Origin: Escherichia coli
GTDB taxonomy: Bacteria; Pseudomonadota; Gammaproteobacteria; Enterobacterales; Enterobacteriaceae
Direction: 5' to 3' (one strand)
Assembly: GCF_050920415.1 (NCBI RefSeq)
Contig: NZ_CP169309.1
DNA: 64,000 nucleotides
Shown here: positions 39,406-48,528 of the stretch, one piece after another
Numbering within the stretch: the stretch's first letter is position 1
Layout of the letters: every line of letters starts with the position of its first letter
Translations under genes and position numbers: made by a program
The notes under the pieces: generated by a model
What the model was told of the DNA's origin: nothing
Database searches by the model: none
Seen by the model: the letters and a program-made list of their open reading frames with translations, nothing else

Positions 39406-41157
39406 ATGATTCAGGACGCTTTTGTGCGCCAGCGTGCGCGGCAACTTTACTGGCAGGGTTATCCGCCCGCAGAAATATCACGTCTGATGGGAATAAACCC
39501 GAACACGATTTATGCGTGGAAAAAACGCGACCAGTGGGATGAAACGCCACCCGTGCAGCGTGTCACGCAGTCCATCGATGCGCGCCTCATCCAGCTCACT
39601 GAAAAACAGAATAAAACAGGTGGTGACTTCAAGGAAATAGACCTGCTGACCCGGCAGCTTAAAAAACTGCATGATGGCCAGCCGGATGCGACGGCCACAG
39701 GAAAGAAAGGCCGGGCGAAAAAGCTTAAAAATCATTTCACGCCGGAACAGATTGCCGCACTGCGGGAAAAAATCATCAGCAGGCTGGAGTGGCATCAGCG
39801 GGGCTGGTTTGACTCCCTGACCCTTTGCAGGGAAGCAGGGATACGTAACAGGATGATCCTGAAATCCCGACAGATTGGGGCGACCTGGTATTTTGCACAG
39901 GAAGCGCTGCTGATGGCGCTGCGTGACGATGTGGCGCAACCTTACCAGCGTAACCAGATTTTTTTGTCTGCGTCGCGTCGTCAGGCGTTCCAGTTTAAAA
40001 GCATTATTCAGAAGGCCGCGGCTGAAGTTGATGTGGAGTTGAAAGGGGGCGATAAAATCATCCTCTCCAACGGCGCAGAGCTGCATTTTCTCGGCACTTC
40101 TGCTGCGTCGGCACAGTCCTATACGGGCAATTTTTATTTTGATGAATTTTTCTGGGTCAGTCGCTTTGCTGAACTGCGCAAGGTGGCTGGCGCTATGGCA
40201 ACCCTCAGCGGACTGCGGCGCACCTACTTCTCCACGCCATCCACCGAAACGCACGAGGCATACGCCTACTGGAACGGCGACCGCTGGAACGAGAAAAAGG
40301 CCACGCATAAACGCCAGCGTTTTTCTGTGGACTGGAAAACGCTGCATAACGGGCTTATCTGCCCTGACCGGACGTGGCGGCAAATTGTCACGCTGGAAGA
40401 TGTGGTTAATCACGGCTGGAAACACACCGATATCGACGAAATTCGTGATGAAAACACCGAAGACGAGTTCCTCAATCTCTATATGTGTGAGTTTGTCCGC
40501 GAAGGGGAATCGGCATTTAACCTGAATATCCTGATTGGCTGCGGTGTTGACGGATACGACGACTGGAAAGACTGGAAACCTTTTGCTCCCCGCCCGATGG
40601 GGAATCGTCCGGTATGGATTGGGTATGACGCAAACGGCAGCAGTGGCAACGGCGACAGCGGCGCTGTGTCCGTGGTGGTTCCTCCGTCTGTTCCTGGTGG
40701 CCGTTTTCGAACGGTGGAGACGCGACGCGCTCAGGGGCTGGAGTTTGAAGAACAGGCCAGAGTCATTGAAGAGTTCACGTGTCGCTACAACGTGGAACAC
40801 ATCGGCATTGATGTGACGGGCGGGAACGGGGAGGCTGTTTATCAGATAGTGAAACGGTTTTTCCCTGCCGCTATTCCGTACACCTTCACGCTGTCATCAA
40901 AACGGTCGCTGGTACTGAAAATGCTGCAAATAATGCGTGCCGGGCGGTGGGAATACGATCGCGCCGAACGCGAGCTGGTCGCGGCCTTTAACGCCGTGCG
41001 TAAGGTGAAAACACCGGGCGGCTTTATCACTTACGAAACGGACCGCGCGAGGGGGATCAGCCACGGCGACCTTGCGTGGGCAACCATGCTTGCTGTCATT
41101 AACGAACCAATTGGCGGCGAAGGAGAAAACGAGCGTTTCACGGTTATGGAGTTCTGA
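39406..41157 (+). CDS. P2 gpP-like terminase large (ATPase) subunit
   Basis: 583 aa in the P2 position, divergent from O. Confidence 0.9.
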   Translation: MIQDAFVRQRARQLYWQGYPPAEISRLMGINPNTIYAWKKRDQWDETPPVQRVTQSIDARLIQLTEKQNKTGGDFKEIDLLTRQLKKLHDGQPDATATGKKGRAKKLKNHFTPEQIAALREKIISRLEWHQRGWFDSLTLCREAGIRNRMILKSRQIGATWYFAQEALLMALRDDVAQPYQRNQIFLSASRRQAFQFKSIIQKAAAEVDVELKGGDKIILSNGAELHFLGTSAASAQSYTGNFYFDEFFWVSRFAELRKVAGAMATLSGLRRTYFSTPSTETHEAYAYWNGDRWNEKKATHKRQRFSVDWKTLHNGLICPDRTWRQIVTLEDVVNHGWKHTDIDEIRDENTEDEFLNLYMCEFVREGESAFNLNILIGCGVDGYDDWKDWKPFAPRPMGNRPVWIGYDANGSSGNGDSGAVSVVVPPSVPGGRFRTVETRRAQGLEFEEQARVIEEFTCRYNVEHIGIDVTGGNGEAVYQIVKRFFPAAIPYTFTLSSKRSLVLKMLQIMRAGRWEYDRAERELVAAFNAVRKVKTPGGFITYETDRARGISHGDLAWATMLAVINEPIGGEGENERFTVMEF

Positions 41158-42203
41158 TGAGCAGAAAAAATAAAAAAGTGCGCATGAGTTCACGCATTGA
41201 TCTCGCTGATGCGCTCAGGAAAGAATCATCGCTCAGTGCATTCACATTTGATGGTCCTTATCGCCTGACCGGGCATGACCTGCTGGACAATATGTACTGT
41301 GCTGATAACGGGCGGTGGTATGAAACCCCGGTGGACTGGTACGGTCTGGCAAGAGCCGCCCGGCAAACGTCCTGGCATCAGTCTGCGCTTTACTTTAAGC
41401 GCAATGTATTGCTCGGTTGCTACATCCCGCACCCGCTGCTTTCCCGGCAGGATTTCTCGGCGCTGGCGCTGGACTGGTTTGTGTTCGGTAACGCATTCCT
41501 TGAGCTTCGAAGCAATATGCTCGGCGAACCGCTTAAATTACGGCACGCCCTGGCGAAATACATGCGACGCGGAAGCGATCTTGAATCATGGTGGTATGTG
41601 CAGGATGGCAAGGATGCGTTTCAGTTTCGCCCAGGCAAAGTGTGCCACCTGATGAATCCGGACATTAACCAGGAAATCTACGGCATGCCGGAATATCTCG
41701 GCGCATTACTCTCGGCCAGCCTGTCTCATTCGGCGGACATGTTCAGAAAACTGTATTACGACAACGGATCCCACGCCGGGTGCATCATCTACATCGGTGC
41801 AGCGCAGGTAAACCGCGAAAGCATGGACTCCCTGAAAGAAACGCTACAGGGTGCGCGTGGTGGTGGTGCGTTTAAAAACGTGCTCATTCATGCGCCCAAC
41901 GGGGGCAAAGAGGGGGTGCAAATTTTGCCGTTCCAGCAGATCACCGCAAAGGATGAGTTCATGAATGTTAAGGCGGCATCCCGTGATGATGTGCTGGCTG
42001 CGCACCGCGTTCCGCCGCAACTGATGGGGGCGATGCCGGGTGAAAAAAGTGCGTTTGGTGATGTGGAGAAGGCCGCGCGGGTTTACGCAATTAACGAGCT
42101 GATGCCCGTCATGGAGGCCATGAAGCATATCAATGACTGGCTTGGCGAAGAGGTGCTCCGCTTTAACCCTTACGCACTGCTGGACACCCAGCCCACATCC
42201 TGA
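41157..42203 (+). CDS. P2 gpQ-like portal protein
   Basis: 348 aa; ATGA overlap with P. Confidence 0.9.
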   Translation: MSRKNKKVRMSSRIDLADALRKESSLSAFTFDGPYRLTGHDLLDNMYCADNGRWYETPVDWYGLARAARQTSWHQSALYFKRNVLLGCYIPHPLLSRQDFSALALDWFVFGNAFLELRSNMLGEPLKLRHALAKYMRRGSDLESWWYVQDGKDAFQFRPGKVCHLMNPDINQEIYGMPEYLGALLSASLSHSADMFRKLYYDNGSHAGCIIYIGAAQVNRESMDSLKETLQGARGGGAFKNVLIHAPNGGKEGVQILPFQQITAKDEFMNVKAASRDDVLAAHRVPPQLMGAMPGEKSAFGDVEKAARVYAINELMPVMEAMKHINDWLGEEVLRFNPYALLDTQPTS

Positions 42204-42627
42204 CGCGCTTCGCTTGTCTGCTGCTTCGCCGGGGCATAAAAAATTTATGCCCCGACTCTCCAGCTCCTGTATCAGTCAGATAATTTCACGACGCCTTCCA
42301 GTTTATCGCCACTATCGACAGTCAGACTCTTACGCAATCCCACTGCGCTGACTGCATGTTCTCGCCGCCTCAGTGCGATTTTGACGGCCTTATCTGCCAC
42401 CCCGTCAAATCAAAAGCCCTCACGTCTTTTTCACGCTCAGCGTGAGAAATACAGCCATTCTGTTGTGTCGCTGCGACATCGTTCAGGGGATGCTATTTAC
42501 CCCCTGAAACGCGGGCTGTTCCCCCGTCACCTGCGCGTAGAAAAAGCGCGTTTTTTTGTGCACGCACGGATCCTTGACGGATCCAGCCGCCACGCGGGCC
42601 GGAAGGGCAAAAAGTCGTTCAAAAAAA

Positions 42628-42654
42628 TTGTGCAAATTTGTGCACTATTGTGCA
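42628..42654 (+). repeat. three TTGTGCA words phased exactly 10 bp apart
   Basis: aTTGTGCAaa tTTGTGCAct aTTGTGCAtt, preceded by an A7 tract. Confidence 0.8.
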
Positions 42655-42662
42655 TTGAAATA

Positions 42663-42683
42663 AACGCCCTGGAAGAGGGCGTT
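42663..42683. terminator. hairpin terminator at the end of the minus-strand early/accessory operon
   Basis: AACGCCCT-GGAAG-AGGGCGTT, with T-rich flanks on both strands. Confidence 0.7.
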
Positions 42684-42694
42684 TTGGCTCATTT

Positions 42695-42955
42695 CTATAG
42701 CTTTGATGCAGGCTGGGCTAGATGTAAGGGTTGGACATACCAGCCTTTTGATAACCAACTCTCTGCAACATCTTTACTCCTTGTTATTGCTGGTATTCCG
42801 ATGCCGTTATTTACATGCATCCATGCTACTGGCTCTGCTTCCAGCGATGCCAGTGCAATTTCATAAGCACGGCGTTCAATATTGTCTCGAACGTCCAGGC
42901 TGCCGATGCGCTCTTTGATTTCTTTAATCAGTTCTTTGTCGGTGAACGTTGTCAT
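42695..42955 (-). CDS. hypothetical protein (86 aa)
   Basis: Last ORF of the tightly packed minus-strand operon. No recognisable domain. Confidence 0.55.
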   Translation of the reverse strand: MTTFTDKELIKEIKERIGSLDVRDNIERRAYEIALASLEAEPVAWMHVNNGIGIPAITRSKDVAESWLSKGWYVQPLHLAQPASKL

Positions 42956-42965
42956 GTGTTAGTCC

Positions 42966-43229
42966 TTATCCTGCTGTGCTTTCAACTGATGAGGGGAACA
43001 AAATCTTTTCATCAAATCCGGCATTCATATCATGGACAGCAACACACCAATCCATCGACGAACGATTATCAAGAGCCTCCATGATTTCATCCATGCGGCG
43101 TAGGTCATACAGGTAAATGTTTTTATCGCCAATGGTGTAAAAACCAATTTTTTTCGGTGATGGACAGCGATCAAGAACGTCCTGTAATTCGTTCAACCAT
43201 GCCTGTTCTTTTTTTGTCAACGTTGCCAT
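42966..43229 (-). CDS. hypothetical protein (87 aa)
   Basis: Start at MATLTKKEQAWLNEL, 1 nt after the stop of the upstream ORF. The listed ORF is extended upstream. Confidence 0.55.
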   Translation of the reverse strand: MATLTKKEQAWLNELQDVLDRCPSPKKIGFYTIGDKNIYLYDLRRMDEIMEALDNRSSMDWCVAVHDMNAGFDEKILFPSSVESTAG

Positions 43230-43230
43230 A

Positions 43231-43449
43231 TCAGTTTTCCTTATACGGATTAATTTTATTGTGCAATGTGTTGAACGACGCCCATACCACGTCGTTATAC
43301 AATTCAATAACTGGCTCAATTATTTTCCCGATTGCCCAGATAAAAATTAGCGGGGATATCGGTATCATCAACACGATAAACAGAATGAGAAACAGAAATT
43401 CTATTGCTCTACTCTTTCGCGGATAGTTTTTCCTGAATAGTGTAGGCAC
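43231..43449 (-). CDS. small membrane protein (72 aa)
   Basis: One or two TM helices (AIEFLFLILFIVLMIPISPLIFIWAIG). Confidence 0.55.
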   Translation of the reverse strand: MPTLFRKNYPRKSRAIEFLFLILFIVLMIPISPLIFIWAIGKIIEPVIELYNDVVWASFNTLHNKINPYKEN

Positions 43450-43450
43450 C

Positions 43451-43645
43451 TCACTCTCCTTTAATGCGAAAGTGGTTTTTCCAGCGGTTTTGCGCCGCGC
43501 TGGGCTTTTTGCAAAAACCGCAATCCATCATCCCGTAATATTTCATCAACCCCATTCGTCGGTTGCTGAGTCTCACCCACTGCCATACGCCTGGATCGTT
43601 TCTGCGAACTAACAGAATCTTTGCTTTACGGTTGTTGGTTGCCAT
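43451..43645 (-). CDS. hypothetical basic protein (64 aa; alternative start at 43666)
   Basis: [23 protein letters not shown].. Confidence 0.5.
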   Translation of the reverse strand: MATNNRKAKILLVRRNDPGVWQWVRLSNRRMGLMKYYGMMDCGFCKKPSAAQNRWKNHFRIKGE

Positions 43646-43961
43646 ATCCCCCTCCCTTGATACCAATATTTACAACATGGCAAGCCTCTTTGAGCACCCA
43701 GTCAACAGCGTCTTTCCATGCTCCGGTTTCGGCTGGCGGATTCTCACGCTTTACCAGTTCATAGAAACGTACTGCTCTAACCAGTCCATCTGACGGTTTT
43801 GCCTGTAGTGCAGCCTGAGCTATGCGGTATGCCTGGAGTATACGGGCGTCGTTGATATCCATTCCGAACGGAATTTCTGATGATTGTGATTCTGCATCTT
43901 CAAGCCTGGCAATTTCTTTACGTAAGAAGTATTTCAACTCTTGTTTTTGTTTTCTGTTCAT
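43626..43961 (-). CDS. hypothetical protein (111 aa)
   Basis: ATGA overlap with the upstream ZBD gene. Confidence 0.55.
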
Positions 43962-44290
43962 GCGTTTTTTCCCTTTTTGTCTGTCACTTCTCTCCTGATA
44001 ATTTCATTGCACAAATCCACGCACTCATTGCAGATGTAAACAGACGGTCCAGCAATCACCTTTGTGACTTCGTACTGGGATTTATTGCAGAAGCTGCAAT
44101 AAATCGTCTCCTCACCTGAAGTCCATGTTTTGCTGGTTTCGCCAGACATCAGTTGTTTGAGGTCTTTTTCACGACGAAGAACTATCTGGCCACATTCAGC
44201 TATTTTTTGGATGTTGACATTTTCTTCTTTCGCCAGCGCTTCCATCCGCTCAATCAGTCGCTGCGCTTTTTCTCTGTCAATGTGTTGCAT
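43958..44290 (-). CDS. protein with a C-terminal ClpX-type C4 zinc-binding domain (ZBD)
   Basis: 110 aa. Residues ~64-102, [39 protein letters not shown], match E. coli Clp[40 protein letters not shown] at about 30 of 39 positions by eye, and all four Cys are kept. Confidence 0.85.
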
Positions 44291-44353
44291 TGTGTCCCCC
44301 TTGTTTATGCTCCCGGGTTAAAGTCATCAGGGCGGATGCGCCCTGATGTTGTG

Positions 44354-44665
44354 TTATTCGGGAAATAACGCCCGGATATTTCCGGCCATCTGACTGGTTA
44401 TCTGTGCGGCTGATACTGGCTGTGACGCGGGGCGTTCTGTCCTGGGTTGTGTCACTGATAACGCCTCATCATCAGCCCATGCAGCCAGTCGGTAAGCCTC
44501 TGCCGGATTCATTTTCAGTAGTGCCAGCCCGGCCAGAAAAGCCACGCGTTGACCACTTTTGCGGGCTTCTGGTGTAAGGCTGTCCAGCCAGGCGCATGCT
44601 TCGCCTTCGTTCTTGACGGCGGCGGGCTTCAGATAGAAACTTATCCGTCTGGTTGGTGTCGTCAT
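44354..44665 (-). CDS. parR: ParR-like ribbon-helix-helix centromere-binding protein
   Basis: 103 aa from MTTPTRRISFYLKPAAVKNEGEACAWLDSLTPEARKSGQRVAFLAGLALL, compared with R1 ParR ..RRTIAFKLNPDVNQTDKIVCDTLDSIPQGERSRLNRAALTAGLALY. Confidence 0.8.
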   Translation of the reverse strand: MTTPTRRISFYLKPAAVKNEGEACAWLDSLTPEARKSGQRVAFLAGLALLKMNPAEAYRLAAWADDEALSVTQPRTERPASQPVSAAQITSQMAGNIRALFPE

Positions 44666-44669
44666 TGGC

Positions 44670-45629
44670 TTACTCCTTGTCCATTGCGTACAGCCCATTA
44701 ACCAGAGCAAACTGTGGCACCCCGTCCGCGATGAAAGTCGCATTAACTCCGCAGGCTTCGCGGATAGCGGGTGCCACAATCTCCGCCCCGCCACCGACAA
44801 CCATCACCCGCCCGTAACCCGAAAAACCCGCCAGCGCGCGGATCACGCGTTGTTTCAGTGTTTCTTCCTTTTCACGAATAACCGCCATCAGGCTGGCGTA
44901 ATGCGCGTCATTGTGGATGTGCTGGCGCAGCCAGGCTTCATCATGGCGATGTTCAATAATGGTATTGGCGATGTGGTGACTGGTGCGCATACCGTTAGTG
45001 GCCATCACCGACAGCACGGCATCGGCCATCAGTGAAACACCTACGTGTGGATCGCAAAACACCTGGCTGATACCTGCCAGTTGTCCCTGAACCTTTGCCA
45101 CATCCAGCGTGGTTCCGCCCAAATCCACAATCAGCAGGGATTCAAACGGACTCATGTCAGCCAGTGCCTTAAAGCCTGCCGGAATGGATTCAGGCATAAC
45201 CCGCACGTTACGGATAGTGAATGCCTCACCGTTCTGGTACTCCACCGGGCGCATAACGTTCGCTTTTTTGCGGTTGATGTTGGCCATGTCCGGCTGTGCG
45301 TTTGTGTCGAAATACTCGCTCAGTGGCAGGGTGACAACCACATCCACCTCCTGTGGCGTGATGCCTGATTTGACCAGCGCGTGATGAATGGCAATGACAT
45401 TCACATCGCTGTATTGGTATTGCGTGTCGGTCGTCTGGACAAAGCGATCGCTGACCGGATCAAAACCATAGCGCACGCCATCAAGCATGTAGTTCGCGGG
45501 CTGCGTGCCACCGAACGGCGCAGACCATTCCGACTTGAAGCTGTTCGGGCTGATGGCGTTGCGGCGTTCGCCGTTCTCAGTCCATGCCAGCTTGATGTTG
45601 GTGGAGCCGTCGTCGATACAAATTTTCAT
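44670..45629 (-). CDS. parM: ParM/StbA actin-like plasmid segregation ATPase
   Basis: 319 aa, MKICIDDGSTNIKLAW..ISPNSFKSEW..YSDVNVIAIHHAL..VMPESIPAGF..LIVDLGGTTLDV..VMVVGGGAE.., colinear with R1 ParM along its full length. Confidence 0.9.
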   Translation of the reverse strand: MKICIDDGSTNIKLAWTENGERRNAISPNSFKSEWSAPFGGTQPANYMLDGVRYGFDPVSDRFVQTTDTQYQYSDVNVIAIHHALVKSGITPQEVDVVVTLPLSEYFDTNAQPDMANINRKKANVMRPVEYQNGEAFTIRNVRVMPESIPAGFKALADMSPFESLLIVDLGGTTLDVAKVQGQLAGISQVFCDPHVGVSLMADAVLSVMATNGMRTSHHIANTIIEHRHDEAWLRQHIHNDAHYASLMAVIREKEETLKQRVIRALAGFSGYGRVMVVGGGAEIVAPAIREACGVNATFIADGVPQFALVNGLYAMDKE

Positions 45630-45663: not shown

Positions 45664-45683
45664 ACGGGATTCTGAAATCCCGT
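45664..45683. promoter_or_regulatory. dyad ACGGGATT-N4-AATCCCGT upstream of parM (candidate ParR operator / parC element)
   Basis: Perfect 8-bp arms. Part of a ~40-bp direct repeat with 45734-45775. Confidence 0.45.
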
Positions 45684-45705: not shown

Positions 45706-48528
45706 TCATATATCACTGCGCGTTTTTTGCTCATTTACGGGATTCGTGAGTCCCGTTTCTGTCTGTTTTTTGTTTCCGCTGGTCAGGCCACCCCGCAGCA
45801 GGTCTGCTTTGCGGCTGGCGCGTTCAGTGGTTTCACTGATTCTCTGTGCGTGCTCTGCGTCGCGGATGGCGCGCAGCATGTCAGAAAGCACAGTAACGGG
45901 TGTTTTCATGGTGTTCTGGTCCTGCTGAAGTGTGGATGCCAGGCGTGCGGCGGCTTCAGGGTCTGATGCCCCCAGCTGTGCCAGATAGCTGGCGACCGGG
46001 TTATGGCGGATCTCCGTGCTGCTTACGCCATGATTACGGCTCAGGCGCTGCCAGAGCTGCGTGATTCGGCTGTCCGGGCGGGTATCCGGTTTGCGTACAA
46101 TTTCAAATCCCTGCGGTGCAATGATGCTGCCGTCAACGTACAGACTGCCGCCCCGTAACAGGTGCTGCATCTGTTGTTCACCGATATGCAGGCCGAGAGA
46201 TTCAGCAGACTCCCGCCATTCTTTAGCGAGTAATTCGTGGTTATCAGGCAAAGGCCGCTGCTGTTTGCGGCTCTGTGTCCAGCTCTGCATTTCATCACTG
46301 CTGTTTTTTGCCTGTTTGTCACGAAGCGAACGCATCAGCGCCCGGCGTTCGTGCCGTTTCAGTGAGCGCATCCATTCGTTCACTTCAACGCCGTCAGGGA
46401 GCTGCGGCCACGGTGCTGGCCGTTCTTCCGGCTGTTCTGTCCCGTTGTTGTCCGTTTCCTGTGCACGGGGACAGTTATTGCCACGAGTCCAAGGGGCGGC
46501 AGGGCCGCCCTGAAGGTCAAAACCATTTTCGTGGGCGTTGTCTCCCGGTTCTGGTTTACGTCTTACCAGCTTCCAGTTATCCGGATGCGTGCACACACGG
46601 GAGGATTCCCCGATGAGTGGTGACCAGATCCCGTAAATCTGTACGCTCTGTTCGCCGTAATCGTTCAGCTCATCTGCGAGGTCGTAGGCGGTGCGAATCA
46701 GGTAGTCCTTGCGTGGAACAAGCACGCCACCCTGTTTTTCAATGTAGGTGGCAAAACACCCGGCATCGGCGGCAGCGAGTACCGCATCCATTGCATCATC
46801 TTTCAGCCGTTGCGGGCCTTCCGGATTGCGTGCCATCTGGCTGGCAAGGCGGCGCAGTTCACGCCACACCTGACGGGAGGGGATGCCAAAGAACTGGAAC
46901 TGACGGACCCGGTGAAGGCGCGCCCAGCCGATGGCGCGCTCCACGCTCTCGGCCATTGATTTTCCGGTTTCGTGGTCAACGCGTGGCTTGCCCGTTTTCG
47001 GGTCGATGCCATCCACGGCGCGGCTGTCCAGGTTCTTTCCGATGTAGGTGGCGATGTAGCTGGTTGGTGTGCCTTTTGAGCCGTCGACATACTCCGCCTT
47101 AAAACGCGGAGTTATGTCATCGCCCAGCTCGTGGCGGTCCTCCTGAATGGCAATATCGCAGACGTGGGACACGATGGTTTCAATCTCGTCCGGATGTGCA
47201 AAGACCATCATATGCCAGTGCACAGTGCCGTCATGGTGAGGCTCCACCGTGCGGATGCCATACCAGCGCAGGCCGTCGCGGTTCAGTTTTTTGCGGACCG
47301 CCGCAAAAAACGTGTTAACCAGGTAATCGCTGGAGTCGCGCATGGTGGCCCCGTTCCATTTGGGGTTCGGATGACCGTTCTCCGTTGTTGCGTGGTATTT
47401 TGACGGGCAGGTGACGGTCAGAAACACCGCTCTGTCGCCACGGGCTTCGGCCAGAAGTTCCAGTCCCTTCATGGTGGCCATCATTTCTGCCTTACGGTGA
47501 ACCGGGTTACTTACTCCCGCGTAATACACCGTCTCGAGATCAATCGTGAACCCGTCTTCATTTTCCAGCATGAAACTTTTCAGGAAATCGCGTGTTTTCT
47601 CGCGCTGTGCGCGAAACTCGCTTAACGCGTCCTGGCTCAGATAGGGGGATGTTTTTCTGGAAACCAGACAGGCGGCGCGGAGTTGTTCTTCCCGCCACTC
47701 ACAACGTAACAGCCACAGTTTGCGTTTCCACCATTCCGCACAGGTCAAGCGAAGGATTGCGCCCGGCAGCAGCTCCGTGTCCGGTTCGTTCCTCCGGTCT
47801 TTGTCTGTTGTCAGTGCGTCATAATGTGGAGGCATGGCGTGCAGGTGTAACGCCATGCGGGCCAGCATCTGATAAGCCTTCAGGGTTACATCCATGGTCA
47901 GCTCGCCATCAGTCGCGCCAAAGCCATCGCAGAGTTTTTCGAAGGTGCTGCTGAACATCGCCGCCGTCATGGTGGCCAGCGTCTGTATCTGGTGTTTGTT
48001 GAGCTGCGGCAGGTAAAGCAAATCGTCCAGGCGTTCGCGTCCGGCAAGGGAGCGATAACCCGGTGTCAGCCAGCGGTGGTCGGTGCGGTCCAGACGTTCG
48101 AATATTTTGCGCAGGGTTCCGCACGCGTAGCGTTCAGCCTGCCAGCTCTTTTTGCCTTTCCGGCGATCGGCTTCCTGTTTTTTGCGCAGGAAGGAGAGGT
48201 GGCGAATAAGCGGATCGCGCAGATAGGACGGCAGCAGGCGCAGCGAGGCCATGGCTTCATCCACCGCGCCACGTGCCTGTTTTCTGGCGTCTCCTGCCAG
48301 TGTGATGGTTTTGTCCTGTTTTTCCTGTGCGTCCAGGCTTTTATTAATCAGGTTGCCCAGCGGCGTGGCGGAGAACGCCGCATCAGCCATTTCCTGGCGG
48401 CGCTCGTTCTCTGCCCGGTAGGCATCCAGCCAGGAGGAAAGCGCGGATTCAGGAGCGGGGATCCCCGTTCCTTCACGCCCCACTGCGTGGCGCGGTTGTT
48501 GCCAGTCCCTGATGTACTCTGCCGTCAT
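45706..48528 (-). CDS. P2/186 gpA-family rolling-circle replication initiator, unusually long (940 aa)
   Basis: Contains ..RTVEPHHDGTVHWHMMVF.. (the HUH-type motif of the Phage_GPA family). In the P2 position at the end of the early operon. Confidence 0.85.
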   Translation of the reverse strand: MTAEYIRDWQQPRHAVGREGTGIPAPESALSSWLDAYRAENERRQEMADAAFSATPLGNLINKSLDAQEKQDKTITLAGDARKQARGAVDEAMASLRLLPSYLRDPLIRHLSFLRKKQEADRRKGKKSWQAERYACGTLRKIFERLDRTDHRWLTPGYRSLAGRERLDDLLYLPQLNKHQIQTLATMTAAMFSSTFEKLCDGFGATDGELTMDVTLKAYQMLARMALHLHAMPPHYDALTTDKDRRNEPDTELLPGAILRLTCAEWWKRKLWLLRCEWREEQLRAACLVSRKTSPYLSQDALSEFRAQREKTRDFLKSFMLENEDGFTIDLETVYYAGVSNPVHRKAEMMATMKGLELLAEARGDRAVFLTVTCPSKYHATTENGHPNPKWNGATMRDSSDYLVNTFFAAVRKKLNRDGLRWYGIRTVEPHHDGTVHWHMMVFAHPDEIETIVSHVCDIAIQEDRHELGDDITPRFKAEYVDGSKGTPTSYIATYIGKNLDSRAVDGIDPKTGKPRVDHETGKSMAESVERAIGWARLHRVRQFQFFGIPSRQVWRELRRLASQMARNPEGPQRLKDDAMDAVLAAADAGCFATYIEKQGGVLVPRKDYLIRTAYDLADELNDYGEQSVQIYGIWSPLIGESSRVCTHPDNWKLVRRKPEPGDNAHENGFDLQGGPAAPWTRGNNCPRAQETDNNGTEQPEERPAPWPQLPDGVEVNEWMRSLKRHERRALMRSLRDKQAKNSSDEMQSWTQSRKQQRPLPDNHELLAKEWRESAESLGLHIGEQQMQHLLRGGSLYVDGSIIAPQGFEIVRKPDTRPDSRITQLWQRLSRNHGVSSTEIRHNPVASYLAQLGASDPEAAARLASTLQQDQNTMKTPVTVLSDMLRAIRDAEHAQRISETTERASRKADLLRGGLTSGNKKQTETGLTNPVNEQKTRSDI
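45737..45756. repeat. second copy of the dyad (ACGGGATT-N4-AGTCCCGT), inside the 3' end of gene A
   Basis: 73 bp from the first copy. Flanking TTT..GTTT(C/T)T also conserved. Confidence 0.45.

Follow-up and report, generated by a model that had tools for sequence, protein, structure and literature searches.

The ClpXP protease of Escherichia coli controls RpoS, products of the SOS response, ssrA-tagged proteins, several antitoxins, and key proteins of the phages lambda, Mu, and P1. Phage inhibitors of another host protease, Lon, are T4 PinA and T7 Gp4.5, which bind the protease itself. Docking onto ClpX involves its zinc-binding domain (ZBD) at the N terminus, where the pocket residues F16 and I46 serve trigger factor, lambda O, SspB, and RssB (PMC7804408), and the isolated His-ZBD binds XB-containing peptides of SspB with dissociation constants (KD) of 35-82 nM (PMC12373786). 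ClpX lacking the ZBD does not degrade sigma-S but still processes ssrA substrates, and free ZBD supplied in trans at 5-20 µM inhibits RssB-mediated sigma-S degradation by ClpXP (PMC7226468). The host itself blocks RssB-dependent delivery of sigma-S to ClpXP with the small anti-adaptors IraD, IraM, and IraP, and it has been proposed that the ZBD and IraD dock at a common site on RssB (PMC7226468). Here, we describe a 110-amino-acid protein encoded in a 64,000-nucleotide stretch of E. coli DNA (hereafter the window; contig NZ_CP169309.1 of NCBI RefSeq assembly GCF_050920415.1) that carries a P88-type (Xuanwuvirus) P2-like prophage. The protein joins a ClpX-type ZBD to a helical N-terminal domain, and the best-supported reading, which we hold tentatively and with somewhat less than even confidence, is that it would compete as a decoy and so selectively deprive ClpXP of its ZBD-dependent inputs. 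Its sequence matches gp19 of phage P88 in full (100% identity, tblastn), and the DNA of the gene likewise shows 100% identity to a copy on the chromosome of porcine E. coli UMNF18.

Residues 64-99 of the protein match the Pfam family PF06689 (zf-C4_ClpX) over positions 2-38 of the 39 positions of the hidden Markov model (64.5 bits with a curated gathering threshold of 27 bits; E=8.2e-18), and its top matches among PDB sequences (phmmer) are entries of the E. coli ClpX ZBD (1ovx, E=2.2e-19; 2ds5, E=6.5e-19). Identity to ClpX of E. coli K-12 amounts to 30/36 positions (83%) over residues 64-99 and to 31/41 (76%) over residues 62-102, which bears out the match at roughly three quarters of positions proposed in a first-pass annotation made from the sequence alone. 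All four zinc ligands claimed there are indeed present, since C65, C68, C87, and C90 align with the ligands of ClpX in the spacing CxxC-x18-CxxC, and they are invariant across 11 aligned members of the protein family. The ClpX pocket residues F16 and I46 are retained as F67 and I97. At the position of ClpX D37, the 11 aligned members all have Asn, and the homologues of phages D6 and PhiR41_1 retain Asp. No AAA domain of Pfam matches the 110-amino-acid protein, and the match to the ClpX equivalog TIGR00382 reaches only 50 bits with a cut-off of 371 and is confined to model positions 6-52, which correspond to the ZBD. The protein is therefore not a ClpX, as it has no AAA+ module. Over its full length it matches phrog_6797, a group annotated as of unknown function (E=1.5e-58), with residues 1-106 aligned to positions 5-107 of the 107-position profile. 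The current PGAP name is "ClpX C4-type zinc finger protein," and some records carry the label "ATP-dependent Clp protease ATP-binding subunit ClpX." The RefSeq records of P88 gp19 (NC_026014) and D6 orf93 (NC_050154) bear the misnomer "carboxylate--amine ligase," which has spread into NCBI protein clusters.

An AlphaFold2 model of the protein (mean predicted local distance difference test [pLDDT] score of 77) consists of two helices (residues 6-22 and 27-48), a disordered linker (residues 49-61), and the ZBD (residues 62-109). Foldseek superposes the modeled ZBD, which shows the beta-hairpins and C-terminal helix of the fold, on the structures 2ds5, 2ds6, and 2ds8, the last of which is a ZBD-XB complex, at a root-mean-square deviation of about 0.7 Å (0.6-1.0 Å) and with target TM scores of 0.88-0.92. 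The first-pass annotation had expected a zf-C4_ClpX match, a zinc-finger fold, and a helical N-terminal part fused to a ZBD without AAA+ module, and the profile searches and the model agree with it on each of these points. Compared to the E. coli ClpX ZBD, the phage-encoded domain thus shares the fold, the C4 ligand spacing, 30 of 36 core residues, and the hydrophobic-pocket residues, but it does not sit on an AAA+ ring and instead follows a helical hairpin of 48 residues and a linker.

The N-terminal domain seems to be specific to this family. An exhaustive phmmer search with residues 1-55 against 1.84 billion representative proteins returned only family members (11 hits), and the intact ones all carry the ZBD; one extra match, to a repetitive 1212-amino-acid coiled-coil protein, is regarded as spurious. 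The domain has no Pfam family even at E<=10, where only noise matches (NAF and SepF) appeared, and Foldseek found no structural match outside the ZBD part of the model. The linker varies in length, with an 11-residue insertion in the Salmonella member P0019. SspB is likewise a tethered docking protein, and the similar arrangement of a module, a flexible tether, and a ZBD in gp19 suggests that the N-terminal domain may either oligomerize or bind a second partner.

Full-text literature searches retrieved no characterization of a phage-encoded or stand-alone ClpX zinc finger and no description of a natural protein that imitates the docking domain of ClpX, and the gp19 gene is not mentioned in the P88 genome paper. 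Comparable in composition are ZBD-only phage proteins (phrog_12435, labeled "protease," and phrog_5259). They also present a stand-alone zf-C4_ClpX domain, and their genes lie in temperate phages amid accessory genes of the early or nin type, but they lack the N-terminal hairpin and are only about 42-49% identical to the query. Among these, Pseudomonas phage PP9W2 encodes a 65-amino-acid ZBD-only "Clp protease ClpX" in its nin region. In Klebsiella phage ST846-OXA48phi9.2, cII and the replication-initiator gene flank an unannotated open reading frame (ORF) of 62-73 codons that encodes a free ClpX-type ZBD (L010 2501-2722, plus strand); the record instead annotates a 51-amino-acid ORF on the opposite strand here. 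A separate metagenomic and actinobacterial family of proteins of about 136-182 amino acids (P0031, P0061, P0085, and P0116) carries its ClpX-type ZBD at the N terminus and, at the C terminus, a conserved tail resembling a helix-turn-helix (HTH) motif (...GVSWARIGEALGMTRQSAWERFSGEE), which is another architecture distinct from ClpX.

The description of the ZBD as a near-copy of the host domain holds for the protein but not for the DNA, which is only 64-68% identical to clpX in this part. Only 11 of the 31 identical residues share the same codon, so that synonymous sites appear saturated, and this codon-level comparison rules out a recent capture of clpX. Across the lineages of the family, the N-terminal domains are 22-42% identical, while identity is 63-78% between the ZBDs and 68-85% between these ZBDs and E. 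coli ClpX. A given lineage thus resembles the host ZBD about as much as it resembles its own relatives, as would be expected if selection preserves a host-like surface, and the ratio of nonsynonymous to synonymous substitution rates (dN/dS) among close variants is below 1, though from small counts. These patterns show long-term purifying selection that keeps the ZBD host-like. The full two-domain family is narrow, comprising E. coli, E. albertii, and Salmonella together with their phages, and homologues at 44% (P0019 of Salmonella) to 54% identity (P0015) keep an identical two-domain architecture.

Of 5426 complete E. coli genomes, 111 carry the ZBD gene as an intact ORF, nearly always on the chromosome. 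By comparison, parM of the P88-type prophage (at least 95% nucleotide identity) is present in 1302 of these genomes with 1440 of 1442 copies being chromosomal, and related Xuanwuviruses encode parMR followed by other cargo. The interval between gpA and gpQ is a known diversity hotspot of P2-like phages that contains old and tin in P2, many validated defense systems, and also partition systems (in about a quarter of these phages) and toxins (Rousset et al. 2022, PMC9122126). The locus table of that study lists arrangements of "StbA + Plasmid_stab_B + zf-C4_ClpX + hypothetical," for which the study reports no test (PMC9122126). In the window, the ZBD gene lies between gpA and the portal gene and its presence varies among related prophages, so that it belongs to the cargo of this hotspot. 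The slot harbors three lineages of the gene that have diverged from each other, and at the P0019 and P0015 loci it is found between gpA and gpQ, co-directional with gpA, and without parMR. In Salmonella P2-like prophages, the gene is bracketed by 71-nucleotide direct repeats that are 97% identical, lie 499 nucleotides apart, and have GC-rich hairpin potential, which suggests a cassette-like insertion into the hotspot. The phage-plasmids D6 (P1-like) and PhiR41_1 carry homologues within arrays of small genes of the Ea22/EaA type.

The gene layout noted initially, with parMR directly upstream and an ATGA overlap with a 111-amino-acid ORF downstream, is real, but the association with parMR is incidental and the ORF is no fixed partner. 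A functional unit with parMR is ruled out by the divergent members without parMR, by the phage-plasmid copies in Ea22/EaA arrays, and by the fact that most parMR prophages lack the gene. An obligate two-gene system with the overlapping ORF is ruled out as well, because other genomes have a different gene downstream or one that is set apart; strain Br_167_kylling and the D6 and PhiR41_1 contexts lack the 111-amino-acid ORF or carry another gene in its place. A known defense system was also considered and rejected, since the ZBD protein matches no defense model of PADLOC-DB v2 and only the downstream ORF shows a marginal match (PDC-M28C, E=0.025). The ZBD gene thus behaves as an autonomous accessory module and is part of the variable cargo. 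Given its location in the gpA-gpQ hotspot, a role in the lysogen like phage exclusion or host conversion is as plausible as an early role in lytic growth.

As a decoy, gp19 would be a small soluble protein in which a flexible tether links the family-specific helical hairpin to a functional ClpX-type ZBD. Without an ATPase ring, the protein itself cannot unfold or deliver anything, but its ZBD would offer the hydrophobic docking pocket that the ZBD dimers of the host's ClpX hexamer also expose and would therefore compete with ClpX for proteins that are obliged to dock there. These would include the adaptors SspB, RssB, and probably UmuD as well as ZBD-dependent substrates such as lambda-O-like and MuA-like proteins. 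The predicted outcome is a selective loss of adaptor- and ZBD-dependent degradation by ClpXP, while ZBD-independent degradation like the basal turnover of ssrA-tagged proteins would continue. The N-terminal hairpin might raise avidity through further oligomerization or bind a second partner. Since other phages carry minimal ZBD-only ORFs, the data suggest that the ZBD alone may be the active principle. The decoy chemistry has been demonstrated in vitro for the authentic ClpX ZBD, as described above, and from this we infer binding and competition by the phage protein; the bona fide ZBD identity, the retained pocket residues, the selection for a host-like domain, the strong Shine-Dalgarno sequence, and the intact ORFs in E. 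coli genomes also count for this reading. The predicted effect would overlap with that of the Ira anti-adaptors, but there is no relation in sequence or fold. Ira proteins bind RssB by folds of their own, whereas the phage protein would imitate the docking domain of the protease, so that, unlike with Ira proteins, SspB and other ZBD clients should be affected too. Similarly, PinA and Gp4.5 are comparable to gp19, for which we propose that a small early or accessory phage protein modulates a host ATP-dependent protease, but they act on a different protease, are not homologous, and bind their target, while gp19 copies a domain of it.

Several points weigh against a decoy. Micromolar concentrations of free ZBD were needed in vitro (PMC7226468), which a single-copy prophage gene would reach only with strong expression, and a scan for sigma-70 promoters and terminators found nothing usable upstream of the gene, which bears on the timing of its expression. 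A pure decoy also leaves the ever-present, conserved, and family-specific N-terminal domain unexplained. Finally, the ZBD of the D6/PhiR41_1 lineage is diverging (GPSVY to GDAVF and L42 to A/V, with a dN/dS of about 0.87 between the two), so that strict host mimicry is not universal. In a more novel variant, which we consider quite unlikely, gp19 would be a natural two-headed factor that rewires ClpXP and not a passive decoy. Its ZBD head would engage the ClpX system in one of two ways, through pairing with the ZBD of ClpX itself or through capture of a single tail of a dimeric adaptor (for instance, SspB), and the helical head would hold a particular host, phage, or rival-phage protein that would thereby be redirected towards the host protease or shielded from it, as by a viral specificity switch made by copying the docking domain of the protease.

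An alternative that we rate as possible but unlikely is subunit poisoning or retargeting, in which the phage ZBD would form mixed dimers with the ZBDs of ClpX via the conserved dimer interface. The three ZBD dimers on the hexamer would be broken up and the helical N-terminal domain would be hung on ClpX, where it might block the pore or recruit a new target as a phage-supplied specificity switch or adaptor. All residues that we take to form this interface (Y34, I35, L42, I46, and I47, reportedly from Donaldson et al. 2003) are identical in the phage protein, pairing with the host domain would demand a very high host-likeness as is seen, and two tethered modules with a conserved N-terminal domain are more in keeping with a protein that bridges partners than with a mere decoy. 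The dimer of ClpX ZBDs is reported to be very stable and constitutive (Wojtyra et al. 2003), however, so that exchange with pre-existing ClpX should be slow and the phage protein would mostly be homodimeric. In cross-linking experiments, free ZBD dimerizes rapidly (PMC7226468). Alternatively, the ZBD could be a generic small zinc-ribbon scaffold for dimerization or peptide binding that would serve a function of the N-terminal domain outside the ClpXP network. This domain is conserved and unique to the family, and zf-C4_ClpX does occur in other non-ClpX architectures like the 136-amino-acid actinobacterial proteins with their C-terminal HTH-like tail. Yet a scaffold would have no need for a surface that is 83% identical to host ClpX amid saturated synonymous sites and N-terminal domains of 22-42% identity, and phage ZBD-only proteins exist without a partner domain, which makes this explanation improbable.

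The hotspot location raises the question of whether gp19 could be an exclusion or host-conversion factor that is expressed in the lysogen as cargo of the gpA-gpQ interval, which would be compatible with decoy chemistry. It might cripple incoming phages that need ClpX (for remodeling of Mu-type transposases or ClpX-dependent repressor inactivation) or stabilize RpoS. While old, tin, and the many validated defense systems at this locus, the presence of "StbA + Plasmid_stab_B + zf-C4_ClpX" among the hotspot loci of PMC9122126, the three divergent lineages in the slot, and the repeat-flanked Salmonella cassette would all fit, the hotspot also houses non-defense cargo like partition systems and toxins (PMC9122126). 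In addition, no PADLOC model covers the ZBD protein beyond the marginal match of its neighbor, the Ea22/EaA arrays of phage-plasmids with family members are not known defense loci, and the gene is co-directional with the early replication genes and close behind them, so we see such a role as rather unlikely. An inert fragment of clpX acquired by the phage, as the short length of the protein and the ClpX label of some records could suggest, is effectively refuted by the conservation data and thus hardly credible: ORFs are intact in 111 genomes, the two-domain architecture is kept at 44-54% identity with a dN/dS below 1, the DNA has diverged from clpX to saturation while the protein is conserved, and the gene has a strong ribosome-binding site of its own. 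The decoy therefore stays our preferred reading, and gp19 is possibly a phage modulator of a host protease that acts by domain mimicry.

Table 1. Coordinates of the gp19-like ZBD gene, its parts, and its surroundings. Positions refer to the window except for the direct repeats, which are given on Salmonella loci L016 and L015.
Feature	Position	Strand	Basis or remark
ZBD gene (110 amino acids, N-terminal domain and ClpX-type ZBD; P88 gp19; phrog_6797)	43958..44290	-	ORF with ATG start, tblastn, PHROG, Pfam
N-terminal helical hairpin, codons 1-48, family-specific	44147..44290	-	AlphaFold2 model, phmmer, Pfam
Flexible Ser/Thr/Gly-rich linker, codons 49-61, variable length	44108..44146	-	pLDDT <50 at residues 53-59
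ClpX-type C4 ZBD, codons 62-102; ligands C65/C68/C87/C90, pocket F67/I97	43985..44107	-	Pfam, PDB match, alignment, Foldseek; residue roles from PMC7804408
Strong Shine-Dalgarno sequence AAGGGGGA, 4 nucleotides upstream of the ATG of the ZBD gene	44302-44295	-	Read from the sequence
Perfect hairpin CATCAGGGCG-CATC-CGCCCTGATG, 10-bp stem and 4-nucleotide loop, between parR and the ZBD gene	44325..44348	.	
ORF of 111 amino acids with an ATGA overlap to the ZBD gene; similar in its C-terminal part to phage proteins of the Ea22 type (phrog_26213/660)	43626..43961	-	
parR (Plasmid_stab_B), directly upstream of the ZBD gene	about 44354-44665	-	Pfam, P88 annotation
parM (StbA_N/ParM_N), actin-type partition gene	44670-45629	-	Pfam, P88 annotation
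gpA, replication endonuclease, one edge of the gpA-gpQ hotspot	45706..48528	-	Pfam Phage_GPA, E=1.7e-129
gpQ, portal, other edge of the hotspot	41157..42203	+	P88 annotation, ORF
Terminase gene, convergent with the ZBD-gene strand from the other side, like the portal gene	39406-41157		
Direct repeats, Salmonella prophages	L016 5891-5961 and 6390-6460; L015 5909-5961 and 6391-6460		

The features of the window and of the Salmonella repeats are listed in Table 1. We infer membership of the ZBD gene in the early operon from strand and spacing only. The perfect hairpin between parR and the ZBD gene has no T-tail on the coding minus strand and is terminator-like on the non-coding plus strand only; it could mark the edge of a module or act as an RNA element. 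The actin-type ParMR system lies inside an integrated P2-like prophage, and it has been suggested that ParMR in P2-like phages may permit plasmid maintenance (Rousset et al., PMC9122126). A 24-nucleotide palindromic unit, AAACGGGA(C/T)T....AATCCCGTAAA, occurs in two copies about 73 bp apart, one in the intergenic region between gpA and parM (45664-45683) and the other within the 3' end of gpA (45737-45756), which are candidate ParR operator or centromere (parC-like) sites. From the ZBD gene to the portal gene (42204-43961), there is a chain of tightly packed small ORFs on the minus strand (phrog_26213/660, 1380, 1832, 1714, and 5117) with 92-96% nucleotide identity to Stx/lambdoid phages, P1-type phages, and plasmids; judging from these matches, the segment is a mosaic of "ea/nin-type" accessory genes within a P2-like phage. 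UmuD docks on the ClpX ZBD to deliver UmuD'. In PhiR41_1, a UmuD-like gene (L005 8820-9209) is encoded about 3.5 kb downstream of the ZBD homologue, possibly by coincidence.

Whether gp19 acts on ClpXP is directly testable with existing ClpXP assays. If it had no effect there, the gene would simply join the other small accessory genes at a phage locus already known to be hypervariable. If the decoy or rewiring readings are true, gp19 would reveal a new route for temperate phages to tune host proteolysis and provide a natural tool to selectively switch off adaptor-dependent degradation by ClpXP with the motor untouched, and it would suggest a likely function for the ZBD-only ORFs found across phages of several hosts.

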